From positions 10,352-74,351 of the forward strand of contig JAYTHE010000003.1 in assembly GCA_043732705.1 (NCBI GenBank): DNA of 64,000 nucleotides, read 5' to 3'. This DNA comes from Candidatus Omnitrophota bacterium (lineage in GTDB: Bacteria > Omnitrophota > Omnitrophia > Omnitrophales > Aquincolibacteriaceae). Below, piece after piece: positions 1,137 to 58,410 of the stretch. A program made the position numbers and the translations under genes. Numbering within the stretch: position 1 is the first letter of the stretch; each line of letters begins with the position of its first letter. The notes beneath the pieces were generated by a model. That model made no database searches, had not been told where the DNA came from, and worked only from the letters and a program-made list of their open reading frames with translations.

Positions 1137-1160
1137 GCTCCCCGCCTGCGCGGGGATGAC
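1137..1160. repeat. Family-A palindromic repeat (consensus GATTCCCGCCTrCGCGGGAATGAC), intergenic copy.
   Basis: tccccgcctgcgcggggatgac lies between ppx and the ROK gene. It is the same element as copies at 15154, 47231, 47272, 52428, 58348 and 58386. Confidence 0.75.
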
Positions 1161-1183
1161 TCTATGCGTCTAATGACGCAGGG

Positions 1184-2176
1184 TCACTTTTTTTCAATTA
1201 AATCAAGCCCGAGCTTCGCGGCGCCCATCATCACCGCGTAATCTCCGAGCGCCGCCGCGCGGACTTTCACCGGCCTTACAAGATCGGGCATCGCGTATTG
1301 CCGCATGGTTTTGTCGGCTTCAGGAACAATCAAAGAACCCAAAGCTTCAACCAATCCGCCGCCCAAAACAATCAGCTCCGGACTCAGCAAGTTAACGGCG
1401 TTCGCCATTGAAATTCCGAGCACGCGCGCCTTCGCGAGAATCAGTTTTTTAATTTCGGTGTCTCCCGCCCGAATCGCGCGCGCAAAGGCCCCGCTTTTTA
1501 AACCGCGTAAATCCGTTCCGGCATCTTTGTAAAGATGCGGCGCTTTTTGTTTAAGTAAAAGCAATCCCGCGTCAGATGCTAAAGCCAAACGGCCCGTCAT
1601 ATTTTCCAACGTGGGACTAAGCTGATCCGTGCCAAAAGGCAGGTTCATAAAAGTATGGCCGATTTCGCCCGCCGCGCGTGTCAAACCCCGGTAAAGTTTT
1701 CCGTCAAAAATAAGCGCGCCGCCCACGCCGGTTCCGAGAAAAATTCCCAAAACATGCTTAGCATTCTTGGCCGTGCCAAATTGCTGTTCCCCATATAAGC
1801 CGGCATTCACATCATTTTCAAGCGCAACGGGCACGCGTAATTTTTTTTGAAGGATGGATTTGAGCGGGCATTTTTTTAGAAAAGCAAGATTAGGCGAAAC
1901 CTGAACAATTCCCGTATCAGGATCAATGATGCCCGGGCAGCCCGCGCCCATCGCTAAAATATTTTTCGCGGTTAAATCATTTTCGAGCAGCAATTCCTGA
2001 ACCGCCGTGGTCAGCATTTTGACGAATACCGCCAAACCGCGGCCCGGTTCAACTTTCATTTTCTCAGTCGCAACAATCGAAAAGTTGGGCCGAAGAAGCC
2101 CCACGAGAACTTTAGTCCCGCCGATGTCGACACCGATCAGGTATTTTTTGGAGGACGCTTTTTTCTTCTTAGCCAT
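1184..2176 (-). CDS. ROK-family sugar kinase, either a glucokinase or a polyphosphate glucokinase.
   Basis: N-terminal GVDIGGTKV. Also LENDVNAGLYGE and the GTGVGGALIFDGKLYRG...AGEIGH ROK signature. 330 aa. Confidence 0.8.
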   Translation of the reverse strand: MAKKKKASSKKYLIGVDIGGTKVLVGLLRPNFSIVATEKMKVEPGRGLAVFVKMLTTAVQELLLENDLTAKNILAMGAGCPGIIDPDTGIVQVSPNLAFLKKCPLKSILQKKLRVPVALENDVNAGLYGEQQFGTAKNAKHVLGIFLGTGVGGALIFDGKLYRGLTRAAGEIGHTFMNLPFGTDQLSPTLENMTGRLALASDAGLLLLKQKAPHLYKDAGTDLRGLKSGAFARAIRAGDTEIKKLILAKARVLGISMANAVNLLSPELIVLGGGLVEALGSLIVPEADKTMRQYAMPDLVRPVKVRAAALGDYAVMMGAAKLGLDLIEKK

Positions 2177-2328
2177 AAACCCTTCTAACTATTTAAAACT
2201 TCGACGCGTAAGACTCATTAGAAAAGTATAGCTGTAGGCGGCCCCTATTTGCAATGTTCCGGACTGTAAATTGTGATTGTATAGAGGAAAACAGTAGCAA
2301 AGCGCGGCGCAGCTAAAATAAGCGGGAC

Positions 2329-2841
2329 TTATTTCTTTTTCATCGTCAGGCTGTTTTGATAGCGTTTTTGCGATTCATCGATCACTTTAATCGCGGCGTC
2401 ATAACCTGCCCAGCCTTCAATGCCGGTTTCTTTGTATTCCAAATCTTTGTAAGTCGTAAAAAAATGTTCGATTTCTTTTAAAAGATGCTGCGGCACATCG
2501 GAAAGATTGTTGATATGACTCCAAAAAGGGTCTTTCAGGGGAACGCAAAGCACCTTTTCATCCACGCCTTTTTCGTCCCACATTTTAAATACACCAACTG
2601 GCTTCGCGCGCACCACGCAGCCCGGGAAAGTCGGTTCCCAAACAAGCACAAGCGCGTCAAGCGCGTCGCCATCCAACGCGAGCGTATCCATAATAAATCC
2701 ATAGTCGCTCGGATAATGAACTGATGAAAATAACATTCGGTCGAAACGCAGCATTCCTAACTCTTTATCATATTCGTATTTATTGCGACAGCCCTTTGGA
2801 ATTTCGACCATGATTGTTAGCGCATCTTTTTCATCAAACAT
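2329..2841 (-). CDS. ppa: Inorganic pyrophosphatase (family I).
   Basis: Shows the canonical soluble PPase motifs EIPKGCRNKYEYDKELG, YPSDYGFI, DGDALDALVLV and KVLCVPLKDP. Length is 170 aa. Confidence 0.9.
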   Translation of the reverse strand: MFDEKDALTIMVEIPKGCRNKYEYDKELGMLRFDRMLFSSVHYPSDYGFIMDTLALDGDALDALVLVWEPTFPGCVVRAKPVGVFKMWDEKGVDEKVLCVPLKDPFWSHINNLSDVPQHLLKEIEHFFTTYKDLEYKETGIEGWAGYDAAIKVIDESQKRYQNSLTMKKK

Positions 2842-2955
2842 AGATTACCTCGGGTATTCGATCCACGGGCCACGGCCGCGGGAAATAAAATTATAAAATC
2901 CAACGCTATATAAACGGCTTTTCTAGGACAAAGCTTGAGGCGACGCTTGAATCCT

Positions 2956-2997
2956 AACTCCCGGTATTGGGATTGGTTTCTCCCATCACCGGGAGTT
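2956..2997 (-). terminator. Stem-loop downstream of giant gene 1 stop, a possible terminator or attenuator ahead of ppa.
   Basis: 10-bp perfect arms aactcccggt / accgggagtt with a 22-nt loop. No clear U-tract follows. Confidence 0.3.
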
Positions 2998-3018
2998 GAC
3001 CTTGGTTTCAGGCGAGAA

Positions 3019-6000
3019 TTATGCGGCGGAGGAAACAATTTGAAGGGTTTGCAGTATTTGTAAGATTTTCCCAGCCATACCAAGAAAACCTGCGCGCGTC
3101 ATCTTGTAACGCTTAATCGTGCCTATTGGCTTATTTTCTTCAAACCCTTCTAACTGCCTGCTTCCGGAAAATTCTGAAAATTTTGTTGCCTGTAAATTAA
3201 GCACTAATGCGCGCTTGTCCGGAGCAACCGAATCTAAATCCGCTCGATCAAAAGTAGATACTCCTTTGACATTGGATTTATCAAAAAAATCAGCCGGAAA
3301 AATATTCAGCTTATCTTCGCTTCCGACTAAACCATATTCCGCTCCACCGAAGAATCGAGCTGCCGCATCTTTCAAAACTCTCTGGGCTTTATCCGCTGAG
3401 CCTAAAATCTCAAATTTAATTCGTCCTGAATATTTTTTGGAACTCTCCGACATTTTCCAATTCTGATTCGCTGCGGCCAAAATAAGTATTTTGTGGTTGG
3501 GCTTAGCCTCAAGCACAGGCACCACATCTCGGAGGAATTCTTCTTCGGTTGGAAGTTTATCAAGAATCAACGCTGTATTAGCATGCTCTTCGCTTGCTAT
3601 GTCGGATCGACGAATCGCATCAATCACATTTCCATTTTCAGAGCGCAGCGCCACAATCTGCGCATATTCGTCAATTGTGGAGATTTGAATTGCTTGGCGC
3701 GCTTTGAGCGTATCTGCGTTAGCCTCTTTGCTTCCGAAATTAAAAATACCCCAAGCTAATAATACGGGGATCAATTTAAAAATCCCGCGCGCTTCGGATC
3801 TTTTAAGCGCATCGGGATTGAAACCTAATTGTATTTTCTCTATACCTGAAATTTGTGATCGTAATTCGGAACGATTTGCTTTTTCTTTAGCAACTTGAAC
3901 TGCGTTTTCAAGAAATTCAAACATTTTCATACCTTTTCCGAAAGCACCAATTATTCCAAGCGCGCCGGCCTTGGCTTTAATTTCATCAGTCAAATCGCCC
4001 GTATTAAGTATAAAACTTAATTTTTCATCCATTTTCATCCACTTTTCAATAAGCGCCCAGCCTTCTTCCCCTTCTCCAACATTCTCGCCGCCGCCAGGCG
4101 GCATATCTTTATCTGTCACAATAAGTGAATATTCCTGAAAACGCTTTTGCAAGTGTTTGTCAGCTTGTTCCGCCGCATCCTGTCCAACAATCAAAGTTAC
4201 ATGATCATCTCCCACAATCATTCTCAATATATCAGCAACTACTTCTCCATTTTGCTGCTTATCATCCACAACCATGATTCTATTTCGGGGGCTCTTTGCT
4301 TCGTCCGGCTTCTGAACCATTTCCTTATCGGGTTCTAAAGCCGAAATTTTTGCAATATGCTCTCCCAGCTCAATTAAAAATTCTTCGTAAATCTGTCCGG
4401 CTCCAGACTGCACTCCCAATTGCATAATTTTATCACTCAAAGCTTCGAATTCATTTCCAAGAGTTTTGAACCCGACTATTTTTTCTTCCGTTGTCATCTC
4501 GATTGAAAAAACAAGATGCGCTAATCGGCTTTTCACAATCATCATCAAGACTTGATAGACCGGACTATTTTTTTCTAAGTGACGCGCAACATCATAATGA
4601 TTATTCACTACCTGAATTAAGAAGCTTTTAAGATTGTCCAATGCGTCGGAGCGAATTTCGGAACGAACAGCGACTTTGGGATTACCGCGCGATTTGGCGC
4701 GGTCTTCAGCTGTCGCAATGCGGTTTTCCGATCGATTTTGTTGTCCGTCGTCTACTTTACTGCTTTCCGCAGCAGATGTTGATCTTAAAATAATAATATT
4801 CTGTCCGATTTTCTTTTCGACTGTAAAATTCTCTCCCAACTCATCTTCGAAAACTCCAACTGCCACAACGCGGATTACTCGCTCCGCTCCAGTTGCTCTT
4901 AATTGCCGCATCATGACGCCAAACGATCGATCCATGTTAGGACGAAAAACATAAAAAACCGTTCCGTCTTTAAAGGGATTTGGCCGCTGCGTGGTTGCTT
5001 CGTCTATATCTTGAAAGTCTCCCTTCCAGATTGCCATTTCTTTTAAATGAATGCGTTTTTCTTCCGCTATTTTTTTCAATGCTTCAATAATTTTTTTACT
5101 CAATTCAAATAATGCATCGTCTCTCTCCACCCCTTTTGCTGCTCCTGCTTGGGTTAATAATCCCGACAGCCAAACAACACGCCCATCACCTGAGCCTAAA
5201 TCATAAATAGTGTCTTCAGCACTTAGTTGGAGTTCATTCAAAATTGCTGCGACAGTTCTTAAAGGTGTACGCGCAAAATAAGCCTCTTCCTGCACGACCG
5301 CCTGTCCATAGTTTATCGGCTCAGGATTGATTTCTTTTGCGAGCTTAGCTAGTTCATTTAATTGATCTTCCAAAGCTCCCCACCCATCCGGAAGCTTACT
5401 ATTTATTTGCTCATTAAGAACGCTCGCAAATGCATCTATCCTTTTTCCCAACTCAGCTTTTTTCTGCTCCTTCACATCCCGCATTTCGGAACGGGATTTT
5501 GATTGAAAACGCGATAGTTTTTTGAATCCTAAAAATCCCGCCAACAGTGACATCGAAATTATCGCGTTAAAATAAAGCGGGGTTAAATCAATCGGCTGAT
5601 CCGATTGCCAAATTGCGGTGACCGCCAAACCCATTAATATGAATACGCTCGCTGACATCGAAAGAATAAATGCAATCCCGGCTGATTTCCCACGCTGAAT
5701 GCTTCTTTTTTCACGGCCACTCAAAGCAACTACCACAGCCGCAATGCCCGCCAAAATCAAAGGCAAGCGGGAAAACTCTTCAAACAGGGTTTTAGCAAGA
5801 ACAGGCTCTGCCGCTTGGGGTTCGGGGAAGACTTCAGCCGCAACAAATAACTTCGATTCTGCTGTTTTAGAAAAATTGCTGCGCCTCAACATCGCAACTG
5901 CCACCCTTGTTTTCTTTGAATTGTCAGCGTCAATCTTTGCCTGTGCTTTTTCTCTTTTGGTTGCGGCTTCGGGAGTCTCGTTTTTAGGAGCACGGATTAT

Positions 6001-12000: not shown

Positions 12001-15000
12001 GGAAACAGTTTCAAGCCGCCGAAGATCTCTTTGAGCTCCCAGAACAAATTCTGATGTAGCAAGTGAAAATTTCCGGTCGAGTTCCTCAAACTGCGCGTAT
12101 GCATCCCGATACTTTCCGGTATTAATCAACTCAATTAAAGCTTGCTCGGCAACCCGCCATTGCTCGCGTCCATAATCAAAAGTATCCGTTTTTAGTTCGC
12201 GGCGTGATTCGGAACGGGCGCGAAGCCCGACTTCTTTCCGCATTTCGGAGCGGCCCTCGGGATGCTGCAATTCGTAACGGCCGATCCCTGCGAGTTGCGC
12301 GGGAGTTGCTTTGGCATAAGCGTCTTTATCATCTTTTTGAATTCGCGAACCATCGCTAAAAACATAAACCCCACTGTCGAGTGACTCCGGCATTCCTAAG
12401 AAAGGCCAATGCCCGTCGGCTAAGGGTCTTGACAGGGCTTCCACGGCTATAGTGAAATTAACATCAGGATCAATTGCTTCTATGCTTGGCCATGCCCTTA
12501 AAATTTCTGATATTTCAGCTCGGTGCGCGTAAATGGCGGCGGCACGATCCACATCATTTTCAAACTTAGAATTTTTCAATAATTCAGATAAAAGCCCGCC
12601 TTTTACCTCCCGGTGAATTTTATTAATATCCGGGTCAGCGCCAAAGCCAGGCAAGGCTTTTAACTGTCTCTCATACATCGAAATAAAAGTTCTTAGACTT
12701 TCAAGAAAGTTGTTCGCCTTTTCGTCAGCCCGAGATTCGGAGCGGGCTTTGAACTCCATGCGCCAAACAGGCTGATCACTATCAAAATATTTTTGGCTGT
12801 CGAGAAAATAATGAACCCGAAGCTTTGCGGCTGCATTTCGAAATACCTCGTCGCCAACCCCCTTATCTAACCAGCTTTCGACGCCAAACTTAACATCATA
12901 TTCAGTCGCATCGCGCCATTCAGCTCCATTTTTTTTACCCTCACTTTCATGCGCGAGAATAAAAACACGTGACTCTGTTAATCTTGTAATCAAGTCATCC
13001 GCCGTAATTAATCTTCGCGATTCAGAGCGGACAACGTCTGCGATGAGCGGTTTGCGCGCCGTGGTTGGTGATTTGAGCTGACTACTGATCGCTGGTAACT
13101 GACCGCCGAAATTGCGTGATTCGGAGCGCGGTTTGGTAAAAATCATTCTTCTAATTTTTCCGCCTAAATGACTTTGCGGATCGGGTTCTGAGTTCTGCCA
13201 AATCTTCCAACCCTGCCGTAGAAGAGGGGCTAAATACTGATGATAGATGGGAGCGAATGCCGTGTCGGACTCATGAGTATCGGCAAACTCAATAATGAGT
13301 CGTCCTTCCGGCAGTATTTTGCTTGCCAGATTTCTCCAAAATTCGACTGCTACATCCGCCGATGTCACTTTGGGGCTTATACGCGGCTCATAGTACCAGA
13401 CGTTTTTTAATCGGATTACTTCGTACGGGGACGGATCCCGAACCACATCCAGCAAATCTCTTTCTTCGATTTCAACATTTTTCATCTCGCTAATTGCAGC
13501 CGTCTCTTTCAAAAGTCCTGCAATAAAATGATTGCTATCATTAAATACAACTTTTCTATTCGGTGGAAGCGAGTAGATAAAGTCAGACACTACTACTCCC
13601 GAAGCCAAATCTAAGTATCCATTTGTTACCATATTTACTTCCGGTAACACCGGGGGAACCCAAGCTTTATCACTTATAAACGCATTATTCTTTTCCACCA
13701 AGATATTCGCAAGGTACCTGCCCAATAAATCAATAAGGTGATATTCTTTTTCCTCTTTTCGAGAGCTTTTGTTAATAAATTGCTCGACTTCATCGGGGAC
13801 ACGCGATGCTTTGCCAAAAAGAATCGCGCGCGGATCTGTGTTGACTGAAACCCATGCACGACGCCATTGTGTCGGATTCAAGCTTGTTTCCATCATAAAG
13901 AACGCAGCGTTCAGAACCTTTTGATCAAAATTATTTCCAGAAATAATTTTTAAAAAAGGAGTTTGTCCAAAATGAGACCGAATTTCATCCAGCAGTTCTT
14001 GTTTTCTCATTTCCGAGCGGATTTTTGAGTGGACAGATTCCCATCTTTTCGCGTTTGCCTTTTGCTCTTCACTGCCGTAGAAAAATTCTGTGACGGCATC
14101 ATAAACCCACCCGCTTTGTTCAAAGTAAGCGATCGAGGCCTCCTGCGAAAGATACTTACTCCGGAGATCCTCCAGCGTATAACGATTCCAATGCAATTCT
14201 TGCAATTCAAATTGCTCGGCCAATACTGATGCAAAGTCACTTAACTCTCCCACCCGCGTCTCGGCTGAAATTGGAATCATAAGATCAATTCCGAGATACG
14301 TTTCTCTCACTTGAACCCGGCCATAAGACCATGCCGGAGCCGCGCTGTTAAAGTTCATAAGAATTTCTCGATTTTTTTCAGAAAGTGTTTCTTTATTGAA
14401 ACGGATTAAAGCATGCGGCGGCAAATCAGGATCTCTTCCTTGAATATCTTTGCGGTTTGCCGAAGTGTTAGTGGTTTCGATATTTTTTCGAAAAAGAATT
14501 TTGACGGATTCTAAAAGTGGCTCGTCGACCAAAGCATCCCATTCATTTTCGGCATAAACAACTCCGTCCATTGGGCTTTCGTTAGGTTCAATTTCTGCAA
14601 TTTTTTGATCGCGCGATTCGGAGCGGGTAATTTTATCCATATACTCTTTCGCGGCACCTTCGGCTTTTGCCCTGCTCATTCCTTCAATTCCCAAAAGAGC
14701 ATTTTCAATTCCTCCGCGTATTAGCGCTTCATTTGCGCCTTGTGCTTCTTGCGCCGCCCTACTTTCAGAGCGAGTGATAATTTCCACCGTAGGGCTCGGA
14801 GAGCCCGTATCGCGTACATCGTGAAGCGTATCTCGGGAAGAATTAGACGAGATGCCGGATGCGAGGGACGCTTCACTCGCGCTACTGTGCCCTAGCATCA
14901 CTTCGCGATAAAGGTTGGAATTTTCAACCTGTGTCAGGCGCGGTGTGAGAGTGCCGTAGCTGATGTCATGCTCGCGGAATAAAGTTTTGAGGCCGTCGGT

Positions 15001-17837: not shown

Positions 17838-17919
17838 GCCCCGAGGGTTTTAAGTTTTAAGCTAACAGCTAACTACTCAATAACCTCGTGCCTCCGGTCT
17901 CCGAACTCCGAACTAGTTT

Positions 17920-34803: not shown

Positions 34804-34846
34804 CACCCTAACCTTGTACACATCGGATGTGTACAAGGTTAGGGTG
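34804..34846. repeat. Family-B palindromic element, intergenic between the helicase and giant gene 3.
   Basis: The perfect 39-bp palindrome ccctaaccttgtacacatcggatgtgtacaaggttaggg. Confidence 0.75.
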
Positions 34847-34897: not shown

Positions 34898-34921
34898 CGG
34901 CTTTTTATTAAATGGGAATGC

Positions 34922-43900: not shown

Positions 43901-46900
43901 CGCTAATCCCCGCAGTTCAAGAATGTTTTTTTCTGTGGGGTCCAAATCAAAAATCAGGTCGCCGGCTGTTCGAATAAATTGATTATGAAGAATCGTATAA
44001 CGATGCTCTAAGTCGGCCATTTTTGAACTGATTTTCTGGAAAAAGGCGGGCGATAAAGGCTCATGAGAAGCTCGTTCCTCCGGGCTAAGCGCGTCTATCC
44101 AACCATCGATGAATTGCACTACCGGCCCGGCAATATCTTGAAATACCACACGTACATATTTTGCACGCTCCTCGATTGAGACTTGCTCCAAACCGTATTG
44201 GTGATAAATCTTTCTCGCTTGAATTTCCCGCCGGGTTTGAAAAGGGTCTGTAGTGTCTTCCTTCAATGAGTCCGCGCCATGCTCACGATTCCACGATTGA
44301 ATCTCCGCGATCGCGTCATCGACACGTAATTCGGAACGCTTGGTGGCTTCAATGATGAAATGGTCGCCCGCGCCCGTAAGGGTGACATGCTCATTTTCCA
44401 GACGTTTTTTCACATCCTCGAGCAATTCCAATTCTTGCCCGGGATTTAAATTCTTTGTTGAAACGGTTGTAATTCGATTTTCTGATCGCGAGGGAATGGC
44501 TTTTTCGTTTCGAACTTCCGCGCGAAAAGACCGCGCTTCTTCCGGATTGATAAATCCTTTGGGGATTAGCCGTCGTGAGCGCACATCAAATTCATAATTG
44601 CGCAGCTTTGGCTGAACCTTGCTTTCTCTGTATTCATAAGCCGCAACCACCTGTTTCAAAGCATCTGAGATTTGCAACCCCGGAAGCAAGCCTTCCTCCG
44701 CCAATCTTAAAACAACCGACAGATTGTAATATCCCTTCAAATTGAACCAAACAGGTTGCCCTTTTTGGTCCGTAATGCCTTGCACAGTAATCCGTTTTGG
44801 TTTTTTTGGATTATCGAATTGAATAGCAATGGCGGCTCCGTTTTGTATGCTCGAATCAACTATTAACGTCGGAATCGCTTTTAATCTTGCATTGGCTTGT
44901 CTTGAGCGAGACCAGCGGTGACCGTCGTAATACTCGACTTTAAGCGGCGAGGCAGAACGAAATTTAAAACCGGCATCATCATGATTCACTTCGACTGTCT
45001 CGTCCTCTCCATAATTTGCTGTCACTTTTTTGTCAACCTGCTCATCAAAAGCTCGAAATTCTCCCGAAGCCTCTGCAAGACGCAGCTGATAGCCTTTCCG
45101 CAAAGGCTTTCCTGCTTCATCTGTTATTTTAATTCGAATTTTTTCGCCTTCTTTTTCAGTTTTTAAATATGTATCAAAATATTCCAAAATAAAATAAAGC
45201 TCGGGATTTTTCTTGTAACGCAGCATCACCCAGCGCGGCTGAGTTGCACGATCAACTATCATTTCAAAATCTTGCGGATGCTTCATGTAATATCCGGGTA
45301 AATAAAGCCTTCCCAAAAACTGAACATATCCATCACGTTTGGAATCTGATATTTTTCTAATTAATTTACGGTTCACTCGGCTCAGCGCGTCTAAATGCTC
45401 TTTTATTTTTTGGTGACGGCCAATCCCAGCGGCAAGAGGAATTCCAAAAAGGTCATCATAAAATGCTCGGAAGGCCGGCTGAAAATAAAGTGGCGTGTTT
45501 TGCTTCATTTTCCCATCTGGATTATAAATGTTCATTTTGCTTACGATCGCAGGCAAGTCTTTTGGTTTATAACGAAAATAAAACAAATTCTTTTTTTGAT
45601 CGATGTTGATTGAAAAAAATTTCGTCGGGTCATCCAGGCTCACCAGACGAACTTCTGTCTGACTGGAAATGGTCTCATTTCGAGCGCCTAATTCGAGTCG
45701 CAGTTTAGCGTGTAGGGCGCGCGGCAAAACAAAATGCGCTTTTTGTAGCAATGTAATTTCTCGAGAAATCACATTGTTTTTTGCTATGCCACGCGTTTCG
45801 GAGCGGGCCGACGATGGAAGGTCCTCGGCATAGTGGATTGCAGTACGCGGCAAATACACTTCGCCGGATGTAAACTCAGCCTTCACGGCAAACGTGGTGC
45901 CGCCAACCGAGGGCAGAAGAACATAAACATCATCGCCTGCCAAAATAAATTTATCGAGATCGAGCGTGCCCCCAATTTCAAAAAACCTTCCGTTGCTTAC
46001 CCTTACGCTTCCCAAATCACTCCTCTTTTTTTTCCGCCCCGCAACAACACGAACAGGGTCATTCTCCGTCAAAAGCTTTAAATCCTTTAAGCTAACGCCT
46101 CGGGACAAAGCCATGGCAATAATGTCACGCAAGCGCACGGCGCGTACCGAATCAGAAACTTGAAAACGCAATGCCGGCATCTTGTTCAGTTCTGTTTTTT
46201 CTAATGAACCCGCTTGCCTTGCCTTTAAGTACCGGAAATACGAGTTCCAACTATGGTATGGCCAAACTCCATCTCGTTTTGCTTTCCAAAATTGACGCGG
46301 AAAATAAAAAATAATTGCTGCCGTTAAAACCAACCAGGTAAATATCGCGCTTATGAATCCACTGACCGAGGCGAGCTTTTTATTTAATAATTCCACCCGA
46401 GGCATTCTTGCTATCAACGAAGCGCCAAACCCAGGCGCTTGGGGCTGCCCCGCTTCTTTTAAATCCCGCATTTCAGAGCGAACTTGATTGAGTGGCGCAA
46501 GCTGCGCGTTGTTAAAACGCATACGAAGTTCCGAGCGCCCTTTAAATATTCCGGCACTCGTGGCAAGCGCGGCTGTGACGTGGGAGTCATTGGAAACCAT
46601 CGAGGTCAGTCCACGCTGCTTGGTTCGACTTTGCTCACCACGAGTCGCATCAAGCCTGCCGGCAGGCAGGCTTGGGACAGACCCCTCTCCCAGCAAAGCA
46701 CGGCGGTAATGCGCGCGATCATCCTCGGTGATTTTTGAGATGCGCGGCATCACTTCAACATACGCGTATTGATTTTTTTGCGCAAACTCACGCATACCAT
46801 CGCTGTGAAAACCACCCGTGACAATAACCTCTATACGCCTCTGGCGTGGGCCGTGGCTCGTGGCAAAAGATTCGCTGAAATAATTGTTTAAGTTCTTGGT

Positions 46901-48601
46901 GAATGATCGTTCACGAGCAATCGCACCTTGATAAAACTGAATGGCATTGTCGTAAGTTTTTTCTAAATCAGAAAAAGAACCGCTACGCACACTCCCGGTG
47001 ATAGGCTGAGGCTCAATACCGGAAGTGTTCTGAAAGACCGCTTCTAACTGCTGCACAACCTCAGATGGTTTGAAGCTGTTTTCTGTCGTTGGTCTTCGGT
47101 CGTCAGTCGTTAGTCGTTTTTCTATTTTTTTAAATTCCGAGCGGCTTAGTTCCAAATGAAGCAATTTATGAAGCAGAATATATTTTTCAAGCACCTTGAT
47201 AAGTTTTATACCTTTATCTATTTCCAAATGGTCATTCCCGCGAGGGCGGGAATCTAGCCCTAAATGTTTCTGGATTCCCGCCTTCGCGGGAATGACAGAG
47301 GCCGCTTCTTTCACAATCTGCGCGTGCATTTTCTCGGCTTCTTTTTGCAATTCAACGGCATCCATTTCTCCACTCAAAATAATTTGAGCAATCCATGCTT
47401 TCAGTTCCGGCCACTTATCCATCGAAAAATTGTTTGGCAAATAAACCGCAAGCCGCTCAAAAACTTCGCGGGCGGCAGAAAAATCAGCGGGAGCTTCGGG
47501 GTCAATTCCGCGGGTTTTAGCTTTTTCGATTAGATTGTCGATTTCTATGAGAATCGCCTTAAGCGACGAAGCACCACGCTGCGCCCCCTCGGGGGATGCC
47601 ACGGGCAACCCCCGAGGAGTCTGCGCTTCAAGTCGTCGGTCTCTAGTCTCTGGTCTCTGGTCCAGACTTTTTAAAGTTTCTAAAAAGTCTAGTTTTTGTT
47701 TTTCTATTTTTGAAAAGTCGGCCGCACGCGCCAAATTTTTAAGATGGTAATACCGCACAAGCATCGGAAATTCGATTTGTTCGTGAATATCCGCAAGATC
47801 ACGCTTCCACACAGAATCAGCATATTGTTGAATCGCATTGAACCATTCCGCTGATTCCACCGCGTCAAGGCGGCTCCTAGCATAAGCTTCCAGATATTTT
47901 TTAAGTGAAGGACTGAGAAAATGAATCGCGGCATCTTGCCAGCGCGAAAAGAAAGATCTTAAAAAAGCCCGGCTTTCCGTAAGTGCGGAATCAACTTTGC
48001 GGTATTGCTCGACATTGTCCCAGTAAGCCGCAGCGTCTTCGATTCCATACCCTTTTACATTTTTTGATTTCATTAGAAATGTTTCCGCGCCGGTTAAGTC
48101 GCCATCGCGCATCCACGCATTACGTTCCGTCGCAGTCAGTTTTTTACCCCCGGGGAAAAAATGATGCAGGTCAGGATCGAGCTCTCCCGTCCCGCCTTCT
48201 AAATATATTTCATGAATCCCACCTTGAGATTGCATTTCGCTAAGCATGTTCTGAATATTCTGCTGAGCATCCAAAACAGCGTGCGCATCTTGAATGTGAA
48301 CCAGAGTACCGTGTGAATTTTTCGGAACAACTTTCTCGGTCACCGTACCAAACCGGGCGCTTGGTTTCCATGTTTCAAAAACTGAGACTTCCGGCGATGA
48401 CTCCGCAAAGGAAAGCACCGCTGCTTGCGCTGTGTCCGGAGTTAACACCTGCGTGAGCACATATAGAGGTATCAGCGCGATGGCCCCAAATTTACGGTAT
48501 TTGCGAGGAAGATTAAACATTTTATAGAAGATAACCGACTTACTTTTTTTTTCAAGTGCTACACAAGCAGGAAAGTGAACATTTTTTAAATAGAAAACCA
48601 C
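34922..48601 (-). CDS. Giant secreted multidomain protein (4559 aa, or 4532 aa from the internal Met at 48520), giant protein 3.
   Basis: A continuous 13.7 kb ORF. The internal Met gives MFNLPRKYRKFGAIALIPLYVLTQVLTPDTAQA, a better signal peptide than the first Met. It shares the IQDAH / GGFHSDG N-terminal module. It carries a PPP-family metallophosphatase domain, a PEP-utilizers swivel domain plus a PPDK_N ATP-grasp domain, and about 12 R-S-E-x-R motifs. The C-terminal tail is conserved with giant protein 1. Confidence 0.85.
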   Translation of the reverse strand: MVFYLKNVHFPACVALEKKSKSVIFYKMFNLPRKYRKFGAIALIPLYVLTQVLTPDTAQAAVLSFAESSPEVSVFETWKPSARFGTVTEKVVPKNSHGTLVHIQDAHAVLDAQQNIQNMLSEMQSQGGIHEIYLEGGTGELDPDLHHFFPGGKKLTATERNAWMRDGDLTGAETFLMKSKNVKGYGIEDAAAYWDNVEQYRKVDSALTESRAFLRSFFSRWQDAAIHFLSPSLKKYLEAYARSRLDAVESAEWFNAIQQYADSVWKRDLADIHEQIEFPMLVRYYHLKNLARAADFSKIEKQKLDFLETLKSLDQRPETRDRRLEAQTPRGLPVASPEGAQRGASSLKAILIEIDNLIEKAKTRGIDPEAPADFSAAREVFERLAVYLPNNFSMDKWPELKAWIAQIILSGEMDAVELQKEAEKMHAQIVKEAASVIPAKAGIQKHLGLDSRPRGNDHLEIDKGIKLIKVLEKYILLHKLLHLELSRSEFKKIEKRLTTDDRRPTTENSFKPSEVVQQLEAVFQNTSGIEPQPITGSVRSGSFSDLEKTYDNAIQFYQGAIARERSFTKNLNNYFSESFATSHGPRQRRIEVIVTGGFHSDGMREFAQKNQYAYVEVMPRISKITEDDRAHYRRALLGEGSVPSLPAGRLDATRGEQSRTKQRGLTSMVSNDSHVTAALATSAGIFKGRSELRMRFNNAQLAPLNQVRSEMRDLKEAGQPQAPGFGASLIARMPRVELLNKKLASVSGFISAIFTWLVLTAAIIFYFPRQFWKAKRDGVWPYHSWNSYFRYLKARQAGSLEKTELNKMPALRFQVSDSVRAVRLRDIIAMALSRGVSLKDLKLLTENDPVRVVAGRKKKRSDLGSVRVSNGRFFEIGGTLDLDKFILAGDDVYVLLPSVGGTTFAVKAEFTSGEVYLPRTAIHYAEDLPSSARSETRGIAKNNVISREITLLQKAHFVLPRALHAKLRLELGARNETISSQTEVRLVSLDDPTKFFSINIDQKKNLFYFRYKPKDLPAIVSKMNIYNPDGKMKQNTPLYFQPAFRAFYDDLFGIPLAAGIGRHQKIKEHLDALSRVNRKLIRKISDSKRDGYVQFLGRLYLPGYYMKHPQDFEMIVDRATQPRWVMLRYKKNPELYFILEYFDTYLKTEKEGEKIRIKITDEAGKPLRKGYQLRLAEASGEFRAFDEQVDKKVTANYGEDETVEVNHDDAGFKFRSASPLKVEYYDGHRWSRSRQANARLKAIPTLIVDSSIQNGAAIAIQFDNPKKPKRITVQGITDQKGQPVWFNLKGYYNLSVVLRLAEEGLLPGLQISDALKQVVAAYEYRESKVQPKLRNYEFDVRSRRLIPKGFINPEEARSFRAEVRNEKAIPSRSENRITTVSTKNLNPGQELELLEDVKKRLENEHVTLTGAGDHFIIEATKRSELRVDDAIAEIQSWNREHGADSLKEDTTDPFQTRREIQARKIYHQYGLEQVSIEERAKYVRVVFQDIAGPVVQFIDGWIDALSPEERASHEPLSPAFFQKISSKMADLEHRYTILHNQFIRTAGDLIFDLDPTEKNILELRGLADEITKELDGLEKDGKPGRGNIPVVAAMQDLHGGTRRALALLAFVYGLPADSYARIHILNDLKEQLDEKGLSLEKFLGRIIGFSDAPDRGPDPVGSIELIDEMVHTSIARFLLGNHDEYRALSALGIHKLFPDIDLYSEEHTGHHVGFWLREAFHHADWGDVELDQLNQRRFNKIVKDINQRLRTFGAAESFEFIDLAKVRQDLKPELKRIKAHNSKLRQKWQGAMAAEKEAALLAKRAPNPIPKPAYLPNINIFEETSKMIRGKMDAYQRQIVTLRETYADLPGFENFTPLTLGNYDTDREIVYSAINQLRNFRLFYLDIYNNLHLHNMIPIDEQGQFNVKYRGQTGLAALELMTRDIRTYFEGLSDADIEKYITGSKSERMAFRRALWNVLGPAFEEITSWYSDKLLHAKVDMVKKFADHGQIGWLMGHTAGSFVDRSPNGFIIMGHNEQSKFPNKQMSPFVLFPSFGSGILNIDGEMSPGYEDLGIILTYNLRDEKGYVTGLKLWGFPDKKDPHPDVIQDLTLVGLEKLRQKAIAQIAALGGELSSGTVPTEAIEEKQKQKIAWEKLEASLREQIPLFEKLTDGKTFLRWTLFKTTKELERQLTARLAKDVSSDVKRQHFEQMLRNTTVEMSKLSNPLFETTAPTPRSEARSAPQNPKASMRSESRDFPKVLANFSADISLVIHSAASEKLRLVLGSEHVHEDNEIEVKDILPANYPIQFKGEFQKLTHNADRLDQFRKYHNEVLIKLASVSRWKQAEADEFMRNFDMLVKIFLSFEGMTSADLVGVRERWTDLEAQYQLVRSGRGGSITVFFDRMRGIWTAAESEKGLSKVDTLNKFINWMHSYVEHSVLKINHDGKWSFLDLDHVATGEPSLATKILPEAILKNLKSPGVTQSNDLSILLKGTNFWMRKTLGVHRMQAYANLVPLEMGGNSEFVYFEGGAKVGNHLRMKLIARVFKKLGFRVVAPAEDEWSFEKMVLRASLDHKQNVSDLSVLMRNTKIAMDMLLRIVNTDQALRDLAESYSKDELDQIIEAWSQKIILTAGKVTPIDIPMNYTKSSAGEDDTAAVPQKIVVSKGKFWESPEPYDDAQNVEFRENGKKIHSALQSTLAALGLEAMPEYDSAVFGQIFIETFFNSVVSRTVNAGRIIQGAHGYEINPHYIASSPIRNFVETWQDLSKRENLIQMGQMVSNTTFRLKHIGLIGQAMVYSAEVSLITGTIEVVLVRSADKKSLLAGGIWSQGQLLTPDAASILLSRSNIEIHVSKSQPGDYARLADNLEMEFRTPAEGSIYTGEAIQGFGFLPGTATGPIRFSEGAQEGDILYVSTLNEGNINLLRMANGVISEVGNKLDHFNTRAKHFGKPRVQVSHAVLKPSSGGGAALEISGKIVDRAENFQGYPLIQAVTDGENIRIEEGDLVTINGTTGMIHWLGKDPVVLEAYHTISSIEKAATASELEKQIQKLIEIISRAVQAKNILLVKFILRQIIFDGTLLSPAHKRGSLAQLFQSGEGKYFEQLKNLLSPADDELREGIKAYLKTLYRHAKGQILRDFSRAREAVGVVARLDQIYYEIRRLRTEVAAFQAVQSFLGEIVLGEPGIDLNSKQESVFGEIQKTIRHLKAQLEERVSEIIEQNKKHPFNQETYFLLARILERVAAFEKLGIRLEKINQKQVAKLKKDAVQIQKQRRARRDALRKKRLIALSDTGIDYYEITGNKGANLGWLNHFVDWYNGQKKNKSMRLSVALGYAVTAHAFNEFLDQTVMGQGPKAQTLRAYVKSVLADRLLSIKEKSQKIEEAFLAQELPQEMSEEISRVVSGGLWAVRSSTKLEDTPRSSAAGLFATNLGATTPALVEKYLRQTWASLYGEPSLSYLWDADPADFFDLLKDEGAVIQQLISADTSGVISSVEISSDDRGFMVINAGYGLGQAIVDADQDADAIVVDKVTKIPQIFPGEKRKKTIVDGKGATMNVETTPEERNTVSLSRAQIAELTDITLALEEWFGYVVQVEFAIKDSVIYLLQIRPIPGFKVPKKERPALAKWAGMIASQEPFKKQRSEARSNQKLEVAESHVGRMSRENFNGESFSHENFNWKSVLGLAAAGLTGLGLALSGAWIPALFISAAAVYFGASFIPPSQGSLTRSGYPVFDSIRGAIDHLKIGFRAASNSPSRSEIRTPAESVKYLYGQWEDLERQNVIIQAKVAYPGVLTNEEGFNQIWKRTSGYGKGVEFSLEHSATDLRQEFQRLSQKGDITPDDLGGLLGKVESHKRRLDVLSAHLMVTDVMTAERRNQSYVIFEAAQAYTNFWKKVITELQQHLKMPADKLYARQGIQAAGFVFELMLGGRMDLAGENERLIEELEAELERVTNDNLPKNTLKILQDLINRRWEFTAFAENPEEMRARHAYLDELKTFAAQTYIMVLSSEQKLSTAQASLAPLLNIMIKIHDYAFAASNDWPTDWNHDRQGLKESLGYVLEQMQKKYRSESRDDTGSLSQRAEIRVQTMLEGSKRIFDESDHWIKTEDLNGNLVDDLIWEAGKIVRVRTRMADGSFIVLDSNGDGVVHSAEIEEGPVFIDWQPGINLNDIQHIPFAEITNEPSPKGSAPSVFRIMALLLMDQKKTSVAYWGNEGAVQAPTDRLFNSLAETMLPQAEVSIDDLSHFVNMQRRGFAQTSGLADYMADELGVLRMKFQIYPRDVKWVPHPFERIFFQTQKGLASIDVRGGKAQRLYYDDEVYLAPQFLFGTLDFHAQRHTIREEDGVFKAYVEDEHVLTVDKTGKVLFERSEMRLEKKVEVKATARSEHRAIEPVVVPKNKIIALKIMAARLFADGILSVKDAVYYLKHHEEFLAVLPLLVSTEQKKQNLAHLTGMLGVDIQVKDGIVLSPALVREGFLAAAKEVFEGVPFALIASGSEKIKAVQWIQTNKLTERIFVAENIREARVWLTRHGVTRIQGMALAGEEALPDFDELIRFTTGQLQKFYDRAGILGEVQHLARIFSVFASAA
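38000..38800 (-). other. PPDK_N / PEP-synthase-type ATP-grasp (PEP/pyruvate-binding) domain inside giant protein 3.
   Basis: ITGNKGANLGWL matches GGKGANL. WAVRSSTKLEDTPRSSAAGLF matches the [20 protein letters not shown] signature. SGVISSVEI...VINAGYGLGQAIVDAD matches SGV.FT.DP...NA.WGLGE.VVsG. Confidence 0.65.
39700..39900 (-). other. PEP-utilizing-enzyme mobile (swivel phospho-His) domain-like segment inside giant protein 3.
   Basis: GNKLDHFNTRAKHFGKPRVQVSH aligns with the GGRTSHAAIVARELGIPAVVG signature, with the His conserved. It is followed by DGENIRIEEGDLVTINGTTGMI, which resembles kdGdlvtvDGstGeV. Confidence 0.5.
43400..43900 (-). other. PPP-family (ApaH/PrpA-like) metallophosphatase domain inside giant protein 3.
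   Basis: Motifs appear in the canonical order: AAMQDLHGG (DxHG), FSDAPDRGPDPVGSIE (GDxxDRGpd) and LLGNHDEYR (GNH[DE]). GNHDE is encoded at about 43546..43560. Confidence 0.6.
47231..47296. repeat. Two family-A palindromic repeats in opposite orientation, in-frame in giant gene 3.
   Basis: gtcattcccgcgagggcgggaatc (47231..47254) and ggattcccgccttcgcgggaatgac (47272..47296). They translate as …VIPAKAGIQKHLGLDSRPRGNDH…. Confidence 0.75.
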
Positions 48602-48765
48602 AAAGAACGATTTTGATTCTTTGTGCTATTTTTTGATCTAACTTAAATATTGGGAGAATATCTCAAAGAACGCACTATTTTGGTAAAGAAACTTCTGAAG
48701 TCCGATGCAACTAGCGCTGTCATTCTTTGTTGACGCTTCACAAATAATTATCTAATTTGTAAGAC

Positions 48766-49977: not shown

Positions 49978-49985
49978 AGCGGTAA

Positions 49986-51158: not shown

Positions 51159-51167
51159 TTTTATTGT

Positions 51168-51584: not shown

Positions 51585-51718
51585 ATCAACTCCCTTTTAA
51601 TTAGATTAAAGACCGACGACTAAAAACTAATGGCTAGCGATAAGTCAACCACCACAACTCCCGGAGATCAGCTACGCCGACCTCCGGGAGTTTTTTCAAA
51701 ACTAAATTTCACAACAAA

Positions 51719-52402: not shown

Positions 52403-52427
52403 AAAGACATCCTAAATTGCCGTTCCT

Positions 52428-52452
52428 GGATCCCCGCCTACGCGGGGATGAC
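52428..52452. repeat. Family-A palindromic repeat, intergenic between the ABC ATPase and the SBP-permease.
   Basis: ggatccccgcctacgcggggatgac. Confidence 0.75.
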
Positions 52453-52483
52453 GAACGGTTCGCTTTGCTCACAATCGTGTTCG

Positions 52484-53983: not shown

Positions 53984-54090
53984 AGGTTAAAAGCTAAATC
54001 TTAAAACCATAGGCCAAAGCCCAAAATTATCCGGGCAGCTGAAGGTTTTGGGTTGTGGTTTTGACCTTTGAGTTTTAAGCTTTTACCTAT
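53983..54090. repeat. Family-C MITE-like element with imperfect ~40-bp terminal inverted repeats (GGTTTTGGG[CT]T[AG]TGGTTTTGACCTTTAAGCTTTAAGCTTT).
   Basis: Left arm aaaagctaaatcttaaaaccataggccaaagcccaaaa and right arm ttttgggttgtggttttgacctttgagttttaagcttttacc are near reverse complements of each other. Related half-copies sit in-frame in giant gene 1 at 15230..15269 and 15838..15877, each encoding SLKLKGQNHSPKP-like peptides. Confidence 0.6.
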
Positions 54091-54102
54091 TAGAATGCCC
54101 CA

Positions 54103-54471: not shown

Positions 54472-54666
54472 TTACTTACAGCCCTTGCGCAGCATCCGTT
54501 TCATTTAGTTCTGAGCTGACGCTCAACCACAAATCAGCCTTTTGAATTTGAACCGCATCCCTTGTTACAACACTCTTTTTTCTTTGCAAAAAAGTAACGT
54601 GCAGCTAAAACGATAACAGCAAGAGCAACAATGATCAGCGCAATAATCTCCGAATGATCTCTCATA

Positions 54667-56667: not shown

Positions 56668-56673
56668 AACAAA

Positions 56674-56901
56674 TCAGTTTATCGGCGAAACAAAAATCTG
56701 CTTAGCATCCTCAGTGCGGATTGAAAGACTGTAGCCGCGCACAATAATTTCCATCGGGCATCCCAGGGGCGCAAAACGCTTGAGCAAGACTTCGGTTCCC
56801 GGAACTACTCCAAGCTCCATTAATCTTTCATGCAGTGAGTTTTGGCTCTGAAAGCTCTGAATAACCGCTTTTTCTTTAATTTTAAGTTCGCTTAACAGCA
56901 T
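56674..56901 (-). CDS. feoA: FeoA-family protein.
   Basis: A 75-aa SH3-like protein (…ELGVVPGTEVLLKRFAPLGCPMEIIVRGYSLSIR…) lying immediately upstream of feoB. Confidence 0.7.
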   Translation of the reverse strand: MLLSELKIKEKAVIQSFQSQNSLHERLMELGVVPGTEVLLKRFAPLGCPMEIIVRGYSLSIRTEDAKQIFVSPIN

Positions 56902-57009
56902 ATGAAACCGCTTGATGATGAGGAGGTAAAATCCTATTAAGATTAAGTCTTAATAGTATACGGGGCAGGTCTTAAAATAGCAAATAGTCATTACGAGGGC
57001 AAAATAGGC

Positions 57010-57480
57010 CTATTCTGTATAGGAAACTCCGTCAGGAAGTTCATTTTTATCATCCGGCAAATATTCAAAATAATCTTTTAATTTTTCTCCGATTTTTACG
57101 ATAGCCCAAACAACTCCTTCGCCAAACTTTCCGGCTTTAAAAAACTCCGTCGTTTGATTCACGGTTTCATCCCAAAAATCCTGCGGGACTTCTTTGTGGA
57201 TTAAAATATCGCCTAAAATCACGAATTCACGGCTGTTCGAACAAATAAAAATAAGCACCCCATTGCGATGATTCGTTTGGGTCATTCCCAAGCGCTCAAA
57301 AACTTCGCGCGCCTGAGCCATTAAATCTATTTTCTTTTTCCGCGACTCAACATGCACACGCAGCTCCGCCGAGGTTTTTTGCTCGAGCGCTTGAATCGCC
57401 TGCCCAATCTGCTCTTTTTCTTTTTGAGAAAAAAAGGATTGCGGTGAACCACTTCTTTTTGGAAACAACTCAAATGCCAT
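57010..57480 (-). CDS. TPM-domain (YgcG/TLP18.3-like) protein.
   Basis: …ELRVHVESRKK…GVLIFICSNSREFVILGDILIHKEVPQDF… fits a TPM/DUF477 fold. It lies within a LemA-TPM-TPM arrangement. Confidence 0.6.
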   Translation of the reverse strand: MAFELFPKRSGSPQSFFSQKEKEQIGQAIQALEQKTSAELRVHVESRKKKIDLMAQAREVFERLGMTQTNHRNGVLIFICSNSREFVILGDILIHKEVPQDFWDETVNQTTEFFKAGKFGEGVVWAIVKIGEKLKDYFEYLPDDKNELPDGVSYTE

Positions 57481-57495
57481 TTTTAATTCTCTCTT

Positions 57496-58380
57496 TTACC
57501 ATCTTCCGCTTGCTCCTCCACCGCCAAAACTTCCACCACCACCCGAAAATCCCCCGCCACCAGAATAACCGCCCCCACCTCCGCCACGACTCGACCAGCT
57601 CGATCCTCCACGGCTCGTAAGTAATGCTCGAAGAATCAGCCACAATATCGCGAACGTAAAAAACCATTCCCAAAAGCTATACGCACCTGTATATCCTCGA
57701 TGCCCATTCCAATAAGTGCTATATCTAACTAAATCAATAATAAGAATAACTCCGATAATCAAGAGAATCATTTTCAGAAGAGCTCCCCCCCCATTGTTTT
57801 GAGCCGCGGCATTGGCCTGATATTCGCCTTTAGTCGCAGACAAAATAGCTCTCACACCACTTATAATTCCATTTTCAAATTCTCCCGCGCGGAAATAAGG
57901 CGTTACTTCGTTACGAATAATTTGCGATGACAACGCATCCGTTAAAACCCCTTCAAGCCCATAGCCCGCTTCAATGCGCATTTGGTGATCATCTTTAAAA
58001 ATTAAAAAGAGCACGCCATTATTGCGATCTTTTTGACCGATTTTCCATTGCTGCGCGATACGTATCGAAATATCTTCGAGCGACCCGCCCTCCATGCTTG
58101 GAAAAGTGGCCACGACGATTTGATTTGAAGTTTGGCGCTCAAACTCACGCAAGTCGGCGTCTAATTGCAATTTGGCCTGAGGTGAAAGTAAAGCTGCGCG
58201 GTCAGAGACGTAGCCGTCGGGCTTTTCGGGGATTTGGAAATCGGCCCAGGCGGAACAAGAAAGGCTTATAAAAAATGCAGCTGCAATAAATGATAAAAAA
58301 ATCCATTTATTGTTCCGCCTGTCCCGGACTTGATCCGGGATCTTTTTAGATTCCCGCCTACGCGGGAATGATAAAAACAT
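57496..58380 (-). CDS. TPM-domain membrane protein with a Gly-rich C-terminal tail. The annotated N-terminus is repeat-derived, so the true start probably lies downstream.
   Basis: YVSDRAALLSPQAKLQLDADLREFERQTSNQIVVATFPSMEGG…GVLFLIFKDDHQMRIEAGYGLEG matches a TPM domain. It has a transmembrane helix and a (GGGG[YF]S)n tail. The first 10 codons (MFLSFPRRRESK) translate a family-A palindromic repeat. Confidence 0.7.
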   Translation of the reverse strand: MFLSFPRRRESKKIPDQVRDRRNNKWIFLSFIAAAFFISLSCSAWADFQIPEKPDGYVSDRAALLSPQAKLQLDADLREFERQTSNQIVVATFPSMEGGSLEDISIRIAQQWKIGQKDRNNGVLFLIFKDDHQMRIEAGYGLEGVLTDALSSQIIRNEVTPYFRAGEFENGIISGVRAILSATKGEYQANAAAQNNGGGALLKMILLIIGVILIIDLVRYSTYWNGHRGYTGAYSFWEWFFTFAILWLILRALLTSRGGSSWSSRGGGGGGYSGGGGFSGGGGSFGGGGASGRW

Positions 58381-58410
58381 AAACTAGATTCCCGCCTGCG
58401 CGGGAATGAC
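58348..58410. repeat. Two tandem family-A palindromic repeats between the TPM gene and lemA.
   Basis: agattcccgcctacgcgggaatgat (58348..58372) and agattcccgcctgcgcgggaatgac (58386..58410). Confidence 0.8.

Follow-up and report, generated by a model that had tools for sequence, protein, structure and literature searches.

A short hairpin-forming repeat is dispersed through a 64,000-nucleotide stretch of a Candidatus Omnitrophota genome (assembly GCA_043732705.1, contig JAYTHE010000003.1, positions 10,352 to 74,351; hereafter the window, whose own numbering is used throughout), where it lies between genes and also, in frame, within two of three giant genes. By sequence and by structure, this repeat is a member of the family formed by the Neisseria Transformation Sequence (NTS) and the Ssn-related motifs (SRM), hairpins that accompany genes for Ssn nucleases (Chenal et al., 2025; PMC11893778). 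We consider it probable that the copies in the window, which we call family A, make up a local NTS/SRM population, that they represent the cognate single-stranded DNA (ssDNA) site of an Ssn nuclease, and that those lying within genes are tolerated in frame in loops of the giant proteins. The element family itself is already known; what is new is that it occurs in Omnitrophota and makes recurrent use of loops encoded by giant genes. The repeated colonisation of the same loops is moderately surprising.

Structure and identity of the repeat

We searched the whole 64-kb window with the query GATTCCCGCCTRCGCGGGAATGAC, allowing at most 3 mismatches, and recovered seven copies, at positions 1137, 15154, 47231 (on the minus strand with respect to the query), 47273, 52429, 58349 and 58387, as compared with 0.00 copies expected by chance from 100 dinucleotide-preserving shuffles. 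A preliminary description made from the sequence had listed the same seven copies, with positions that proved right to within 1 nt. It had also called the repeat a 25-bp palindrome; the hairpin stands, but the symmetric 25-mer does not, the unit being instead an oriented element of 28 nt with asymmetric flanks. Alignment and folding resolve this unit into an 8-bp stem (ATTCCCGC/GCGGGAAT) enclosing a 4-nt loop, with GTC as its 5′ flank and CYAG as its 3′ flank. Within the stem alignment 98.8% of cells are paired, and the flanks are non-palindromic and give the element its orientation. On the 5′ side TCAT is invariant and is preceded by G in nine of ten aligned copies, while on the 3′ side there is no variation in the C two bases past the stem or in the A of CYAG. 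The stems of the copies at 1134-1161 and 52426-52453 read ATCCCCGC/GCGGGGAT, a compensatory UA>CG change affecting one pair. Hairpin stability, which the preliminary description had proposed to assess by folding, was confirmed with z-scores from -3.9 to -8.5 for all copies except the weakest, at 1137 (z = -1.8). The minus strand, which is G-rich and serves as the sense strand for almost all of the window's genes, carries six of the seven good copies. The elements are arranged as inverted doublets (1105-1161, which takes in a degenerate eighth copy, and 47230-47297), as a direct tandem (58346-58411) and as singles (15151-15178 and 52426-52453), and the doublet in giant gene 3, 68 nt in length, folds as a single 27-bp stem of -53.9 kcal/mol.

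The link to NTS was reached by a full-text search with the stem sequence, which led to the study of Chenal et al. (2025; PMC11893778). There NTS is given as CGTCATTCCCGCGMAVGCGGGAATCYRG, a longer oriented element built around the dRS3 core ATTCCC-N8-GGGAAT, and SsnA is described as a 94-aa single-domain GIY-YIG nuclease that binds and cuts NTS only as ssDNA and whose nuclease activity is abolished by mutating Y6, Y17 and E64. SRM and ssn genes were found to co-occur across several phyla, often in the order NTS-ssn-NTS, a unit that its authors compared to an insertion sequence. According to the same study, 2% of NTS copies in N. meningitidis are intragenic, Neisseria NTS copies cluster around surface-protein genes, and dRS3 is the known target of a specific phage recombinase in Neisseria (PMC11893778).

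Against this background the copies in the window are readily recognized. Five of the seven match NTS, three with one mismatch, one with two and one with three; the remaining two, at 1134-1161 and 58346-58373, are more diverged from the NTS consensus. The published SRM pattern, HGTCWYN(0-2)YYVSBRHN(0-5)WNVSBRGN(0-2)RNCYNB, is likewise matched by five of the seven copies and by no other site in the 64 kb. The exact dRS3 core is also present in five of the seven, with ATCCCC...GGGGAT in the other two. An independent assembly of the same genome, a Logan contig of 17.9 kb and the only one found with the exact pyrophosphatase, is 100% identical to the window over positions 1-12841, and its end was placed at 15177, which is the last base of the copy at 15154-15177, as would be expected for a multi-copy repeat.

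All of the intergenic copies occupy short spacers between co-directional minus-strand genes, namely from ROK to Ppx, from a fused substrate-binding/permease gene to an ABC ATPase gene, and from LemA to TPM (Table 1). The preliminary description had placed them between convergent or co-directional genes, sometimes in tandem; co-directional and tandem placement are confirmed, and 0 copies lie between convergent genes. Only the copy at 58384..58411 received a terminator-like score (at 58388-58407), and a T-rich tail is found in one of eight copies, for which reason a general role in termination was rejected. No Rfam family matched the repeat in the window, where a tRNA-Met (CAT) gene at 59129-59205 on the minus strand was the sole Rfam or ARAGORN match. 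As a separate observation, the copy at 52426-52453 is bracketed by CCGTTC and GAACGG (52415-52465), which without the insert would form a perfect 12-nt palindrome; the element either landed in the middle of an existing palindrome or has an extended form with CCGTTC/GAACGG as an extra outer stem.

One copy also reaches into a coding sequence from its edge. The start codon of the TPM-domain open reading frame (ORF), an ATG at 58380, lies between the two tandem copies, and translation in phase 2 through 58346-58373 yields the N-terminus MFLSFPRRRES, just as the preliminary description had proposed. Upstream of the signal-peptide core of this protein no in-frame ATG, GTG or TTG was found other than the ATG at 58380. 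Because there is no alternative in-frame start codon, the NTS-derived Arg-rich stretch is plausibly the real n-region of a putative TPM signal peptide.

Table 1. Copies of the repeat in the window and the genes and domains that contain or adjoin them.
Feature	Position	Strand	Remarks
Degenerate NTS-like hairpin GTCCTTCCCGCAAAAGCGGGCAATCTAG, eighth copy	1105..1132	+	Head to head with the copy at 1134-1161; 87-nt ROK-Ppx spacer; read from the sequence
NTS/SRM copy AGTCATCCCCGCGCAGGCGGGGAGCTAG, intergenic	1134..1161	-	Matches the SRM pattern; compensatory T>C / A>G stem change
Giant gene 1 ORF	3019-16791	-	4590 aa
Giant gene 1, N-terminal conserved domain	14872..16791	-	~640 aa; contains NTS and three other repeat-derived in-frame inserts
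NTS copy TGTCATTCCCGCGCAGGCGGGAATCCAG, in frame in giant gene 1	15151..15178	-	VIPAQAGIQ; 1 mismatch to consensus; Site II
Giant gene 2 ORF	22983-33083	-	3366 aa
Giant gene 2, N-terminal domain	about 31500-33083	-	
Giant gene 3 ORF	34922-48601	-	4559 aa
Giant gene 3, N-terminal domain	46652..48601	-	Homologous
NTS copy, antisense in giant gene 3	47230..47257	+	LDSRPRGND; distal half of inverted doublet, Site I
NTS copy, sense in giant gene 3	47270..47297	-	VIPAKAGIQ; proximal half of doublet, Site I
NTS copy CGTCATCCCCGCGTAGGCGGGGATCCAG	52426..52453	-	81-nt spacer of two co-directional ABC-transporter genes; compensatory stem change
TPM-domain ORF	57496..58380	-	First 11 codons overlap an NTS copy
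NTS variant ATCATTCCCGCGTAGGCGGGAATCTAA, N-terminus of TPM-domain ORF	58346..58373	-	Phase 2, SFPRRRES
NTS copy between LemA and TPM genes	58384..58411	-	1 mismatch; direct tandem with 58346-58373; ends 3 nt before the TPM ATG

In-frame copies in the N-terminal domain of the giant proteins

A homologous domain of ~500-650 aa, with the motifs HIQxAH, VEGA and TGGFHxxG, stands at the N-terminus of each of the three giant proteins. This domain had no match in Pfam or NCBIfam, and a Foldseek comparison with the PDB gave nothing significant (the second-ranked entry was 3b55, with an E-value of 0.95). The layout of its motifs may resemble that of Tiki/TraB/erythromycin-esterase-like enzymes. Database homologs of the window's proteins bear the names Candidatus Omnitrophota/Omnitrophica. 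The same domain heads 29 Omnitrophota database proteins, mostly of ~1000-1200 aa, and at least 407 metagenome stretches encode relatives of it, of which we analysed 79 loci with a total of 1.10 Mb.

Three copies of the repeat are found in frame within the domain, in giant genes 1 and 3, at two non-homologous positions, and they are translated as the preliminary description had reported, giant gene 1 encoding VIPAQAGIQ and giant gene 3 encoding VIPAKAGIQ...LDSRPRGND. When the giant genes are aligned with their homologs these peptides fall in alignment gaps. Site I, between the ...LFxxIL... and ...LLxLxRD... helices, holds the doublet of giant gene 3, and Site II, just before the conserved FxxAFxFY helix, holds the copy of giant gene 1. 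The comparison with orthologs that had been proposed for the insertions gave a consistent answer, as the closest orthologs of giant gene 1, L123 (60% identity) and L124 (55%), are without NTS at Site II. Similarly, giant gene 2 encodes a compact, insert-free paralog, and most homologs are empty at both sites. A 15-bp palindrome at 15114-15144, beside the copy in giant gene 1, was considered as a conserved target at Site II and rejected, as it is not conserved in L123/L124.

NTS copies that share 26-27 of 27 nt with those of the window are nevertheless present in three distant homologs, whose protein identities are 27-41%. These copies lie at Site I in the sense orientation (L158) and at Site II in the antisense orientation (L139 and L157), and in each case the NTS is in frame and is paired, in inverted orientation, with a different SRM-type hairpin. 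A single phase is common to the six NTS copies of the domain, counted over the window and the related loci; it reads VIPAxAGIQ in sense and LDSRxRGND in antisense. Sense copies within genes use the CCAG variant of the 3′ flank and thereby avoid the stop that would arise from CTAG when read in this phase. Since the DNA of the copies is nearly identical while the coding sequence around it has diverged widely, and since the copies occupy non-homologous positions in either orientation, a peptide conserved from an ancestor is excluded and repeated insertion is indicated. Judged from these alignments, the in-gene copies are independent insertions. An ancestral origin of VIPAQAGIQ and LDSRxRGND within the domain could appeal to the recurrence of the motif in several members of the family, yet the peptides occur at two alignment positions, are missing in most homologs, the closest orthologs included, show ~100% nucleotide identity against only 27-41% identity in the surrounding protein, and are encoded by a 27-mer that is also found in DNA between genes and within unrelated genes of other phyla. 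We regard this explanation, whose probability is close to nil, as already refuted by the data on position, orientation, absence and identity.

Hairpins of this type are concentrated in the domain in related genomes as well. Within the 79 related loci we found nine hairpins of the GTCAT-YCCC type, eight of which, forming four doublets, lie inside the domain, which accounts for ~11% of that DNA. By our own arithmetic, the chance that at least four of five insertion events would fall in the domain is P ~7e-4. Elsewhere in the window's giant-gene coding sequence, over ~37 kb, there are 0 copies.

An AlphaFold2 model of the domain of giant gene 1 (mean predicted local distance difference test score, pLDDT, 71; predicted template-modelling score, pTM, 0.66) shows where such insertions might be accommodated. 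Four segments with pLDDT below 50, at residues 159-186, 312-324, 445-456 and 511-543, coincide with the four repeat-derived inserts, while the flanking helices score ~90; the other low-confidence parts of the model are the N-terminal region, residues 363-380 and the C-terminal tail. The NTS peptide itself (~residues 538-547) spans the end of the last of the four segments and reaches the next helix. Since the inserts correspond to low-confidence segments of the model, they are predicted to sit in loops, which may be disordered.

Other palindromes, unrelated to NTS, occur in the same region of the giant proteins and elsewhere in the window. A second family of ~60 nt (ACCCTGTACACATCGGATGTGTACAGGGT) is present at 63211-63272, 15408-15468 and 34804-34846. 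Two of these copies are in frame, one in the anticodon-binding domain of valyl-tRNA synthetase (NPVHIGCVQGDTSDVYRV) and the other in giant gene 1 at Site I (NPVHIGCVQGCAHPMWTG); one more is intergenic. A third family of ~45 nt (...AAAGCTTAAAGGTCAAAACCATAGCC...), at 15219-15263, 15828-15872 and 54039-54083 (the last with an inverted partner at 53975-54014), has two in-frame copies in giant gene 1 (SLKLKGQNHSPKPSD and SLKVKSQNHNSKADS) and a single one between genes, and the ortholog L124 contains the peptides VKGQNHN and VKRQNHNSKP, which are related to these inserts. In addition, the palindrome GGGACTGTCCCC.../...GGGGTCAGTCCC (16256-16299) forms an in-frame insert at Site 0 of giant gene 1 that is absent from L123, and the palindrome CCTCGGGGGATGCC/GGCAACCCCCGAGG (47587-47617) underlies an in-frame insert in giant gene 3. 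The occurrence of these unrelated palindromes (families B and C, GGGACTGTCCCC... and CCTCGGGGGATGCC...) in the same loops suggests that the loops are generally permissive. The giant proteins also contain a recurring pentapeptide, RSE[MSIL]R (DNA CGCTCCGAAATGCGG, minus strand; for example at 5473-5493, 9730-9750 and 12232-12252), which shows up as the direct-repeat families D2, D4, D8 and D10 and which apparently delimits modules.

Distribution across genomes and association with ssn genes

The distribution of the repeat and its link to ssn were tested INDEPENDENTLY, and the exact 27-mer GTCATTCCCGCGMAGGCGGGAATCYAG was scanned against GTDB species genomes and IMG/VR viral contigs. The repeat is not unique to the window: at least 120 stretches of GTDB genomes, spread over more than 10 phyla, and at least 120 viral contigs contain its exact 27-mer. 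Hosts among the matches listed include Alpha-, Beta- and Gammaproteobacteria (with Neisseria, Rickettsia and Tisiphia), Thermodesulfobacteriota, Planctomycetota, Chloroflexota, Nitrospirota, Nitrospinota, Zixibacteria, Gemmatimonadota, Bdellovibrionota, Patescibacteria, Cryosericota and one Nanoarchaeota metagenome-assembled genome (MAG); no Omnitrophota record was among the matches listed for these genome stretches.

Several of these loci join the repeat to an ssn gene. Among the matches listed, Ssn-like ORFs with Y6, Y17 and E64 adjoin NTS in 4 of 120 genome loci (L013, L051, L079 and L082) and in 6 of 120 viral loci, and in the ssn-bearing loci the gene lies within tens of nucleotides of NTS even though the loci were retrieved by the repeat alone. 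For example, in L051 the NTS ends 6 nt ahead of the ssn ATG, and the encoded protein has Y6, Y17 and E64, while in the viral contig L247 the gene is flanked on both sides in an NTS-ssn-NTS arrangement like that of an insertion sequence. A protein search seeded with the L051 sequence returned 4889 relatives, including a 94-aa Omnitrophota protein (P0114) with Y6/Y17/E64. The gene for P0114, located in the Omnitrophota MAG GCA_030650275.1 (L122, 9889-10352), is enclosed by argG and argH, and SRM-type hairpins, GTCATGCCCGA-N9-TCGGGCATCCAG, adjoin it on either side; canonical NTS is absent at this ssn locus. This hairpin-ssn-hairpin arrangement within an arginine-biosynthesis gene cluster looks like a small mobile unit.

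Further observations concern individual carriers of the element. The viral contigs L206, L208 and L244 contain NTS arrays of 5-13 copies, and viruses or prophages may carry the element between hosts. In the binned Nanoarchaeota genome (L022, 1508-1534) an exact NTS is read as VIPAQAGIQ inside a 584-codon open frame, which might reflect misbinning or a true occurrence in an archaeon. Two exact NTS inverted doublets of 128-132 bp are present in a Rickettsia endosymbiont (L061, 592-723 and 1642-1769), one of which is in frame inside isoleucyl-tRNA synthetase (IleRS; CHSREGGNPE...LDSRLRGND). The same IleRS has a separate match to the RPE4 domain of NCBIfam at residues 227-251, apart from the NTS doublet.

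Interpretation and comparison with known elements

The proposal of the preliminary description, that the repeat resembles repetitive extragenic palindromes (REP) or miniature elements like the Rickettsia palindromic elements (RPE), which can colonise coding regions, is supported by these findings: the repeat also occurs in many other genomes, and orthologs do not carry the same peptides in diverged nucleotide sequence. We propose that the copies in the window are non-autonomous and would be spread or maintained in trans by an Ssn-type nuclease, assumed to be encoded elsewhere on the chromosome, that would act on hairpins extruded in ssDNA, by analogy with the dependence of REP and REPINs on RAYT. 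Most surviving copies would be those in short spacers inside operons, and a copy within a gene would survive only if it kept the frame, avoided stop codons and hit a disordered surface loop. Three loops of the Omnitrophota giant-protein domain would thereby have taken up NTS, other SRM variants and unrelated palindromes, repeatedly and in independent events, and the inserted copies would be translated as short neutral linkers (VIPAxAGIQ and LDSRxRGND), as described for RPE.

Several points weigh against this proposal. A mechanism of transposition has nowhere been demonstrated for NTS/SRM; the findings of Chenal et al. concern cleavage and an influence on transformation rather than mobility (PMC11893778). 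No target-site duplication is visible at any copy in the window, and neither such a duplication nor a clean empty site could be defined at the nucleotide level with orthologs that are only 55-60% identical. With two Ssn seeds, tblastn found no ssn gene, the kind that encodes a single-domain GIY-YIG protein of ~94 aa (cd10448), either across the 64 kb of the window or over the additional 2.7 kb that locus L001 provides. Finally, intragenic copies make up three of eight in the window and eight of nine SRM-type hairpins in the 79 related loci, compared with 2% in N. meningitidis, and so high an intragenic share makes passive tolerance alone a poor explanation.

This last point leads to a different account of the in-gene copies, in which NTS/SRM doublets are targeted to, or selected in, two or three loops of the domain and have a role there rather than being mere passengers. 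Such a role might lie in Ssn-dependent recombination or diversification among giant paralogs, or in hairpins that pace transcription or translation. The capture of four of five insertion events by the domain (P ~7e-4), the occurrence of its eight hairpins as inverted doublets, the single phase of its six NTS copies and the lack of copies in the remaining ~37 kb of giant-gene coding sequence, where many other linkers exist, are all in keeping with this account, as is the clustering of Neisseria NTS around surface-protein genes (PMC11893778). The events are few, however, and the sites are empty in most homologs; unrelated palindromes also occupy these loops, which points to general permissiveness, the peptides fall in low-confidence loops, and the window has intergenic copies as well. 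Simple loop tolerance may explain the domain bias, and we think it unlikely that the loops are specifically targeted, or that the copies within them serve either of these roles.

Two further explanations concern the nature of the repeat as a whole. Host regulatory hairpins (terminators, attenuators or mRNA-stabilising structures) or attachment sites for IS110 or phage recombinases would account for the sense orientation of all intergenic copies in short co-directional spacers, for the terminator-like copy at 58388-58407, for the presence of NTS in many viral contigs and for the targeting of dRS3 by a phage recombinase (PMC11893778). Such functions are compatible with a local NTS/SRM population, but as an explanation they are quite improbable, given that a T-rich tail is confined to one of eight copies, that no Rfam family was matched, that copies inside ORFs cannot terminate genes running 12 kb further downstream, and that the window contains no integrase or IS110 gene. 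Classical REP or REPIN elements moved by RAYT (an IS200/IS605-type Y1 transposase), or MITEs (miniature transposable elements with inverted repeats) derived from ordinary insertion sequences, are likewise suggested by the short, dispersed and mostly extragenic palindromes, some of them in inverted doublets like REPINs. The typical 5′ head of REP is GTAG, and the tetranucleotide here is GTCA. This head, together with the lack of RAYT/Y1_Tnp in the ORFs of the window, led us to reject membership in REP/RAYT. Indeed, no Y1 or other transposase domain was found by Pfam in any ORF of at least 120 aa in the window, no terminal inverted repeats with target-site duplication were seen, and the sequence is that of the Ssn-associated NTS, which adjoins ssn in other genomes. 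We accordingly hold this origin to be highly improbable.

If the copies do form a local NTS/SRM population, the NTS/Ssn system would extend to Omnitrophota, an uncultured, host-dependent phylum in which five copies of this window lie within 1-3 mismatches of the Neisseria consensus. The hairpins can be written into proteins, so that annotators who meet VIPAQAGIQ, SFPRRRES or LDSRLRGND in unrelated proteins should regard them as repeat-derived. The N-terminal domain of the giant proteins offers a concrete set of permissive loops, and the bias toward it (eight of nine hairpins in 1.1 Mb) could bear on how such elements choose sites or survive at them. Were the loops indeed targeted, the copies in them would represent a bacterial selfish hairpin element co-opted inside coding sequence. 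Hairpin or palindrome inserts are unmentioned in the published accounts of Omnitrophota giant genes that we compared.

Among known systems, NTS/SRM is the one that the repeat matches in its 28-nt sequence, stem and loop length and in its oriented flanks (5′ GTC and 3′ C-YRG). It also agrees with NTS/SRM in being dispersed, with seven or eight copies across the 64 kb of the window, as singles, tandems and inverted pairs, in sharing an exact sequence with several phyla, and in that ssn adjoins the repeat in other genomes retrieved. They differ in that the window is without an ssn gene, in the first base, which here is usually T or G rather than C, and in the intragenic share, three of eight copies as against 2% in N. 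meningitidis; Omnitrophota are unnamed in the main text of PMC11893778. The dRS3/NIME elements of Neisseria share the exact dRS3 core with five of the seven copies, but they belong to a different phylum, the G+C content of the window being ~45%, and we found in the window no RS or NIME mosaic arrays, no filamentous-prophage junctions and no phage or IS110 genes, and noted no Correia elements.

The resemblance to REP/REPIN-RAYT systems lies in the short hairpins, the inverted doublets, and the presumed dependence on a dedicated nuclease that acts in trans on ssDNA hairpins, whereas the associated enzyme here is a GIY-YIG nuclease and not an HUH Y1 transposase. RPE are palindromic, selfish-type repeats of ~100-150 bp that are found in frame in unrelated genes and are translated (Ogata et al., 2000; reviewed in PMC10969869). 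Membership in RPE was rejected on length and because the window peptides have no match to an NCBIfam RPE domain: the units here are 28 nt and the doublets 57-68 nt, and the insertions, unlike those of RPE, concentrate in one domain family. Nevertheless, the copies within the giant genes are, like RPE, in frame, translated and located at positions compatible with the fold, and a Rickettsia endosymbiont itself carries exact NTS doublets, one of them in frame in IleRS.

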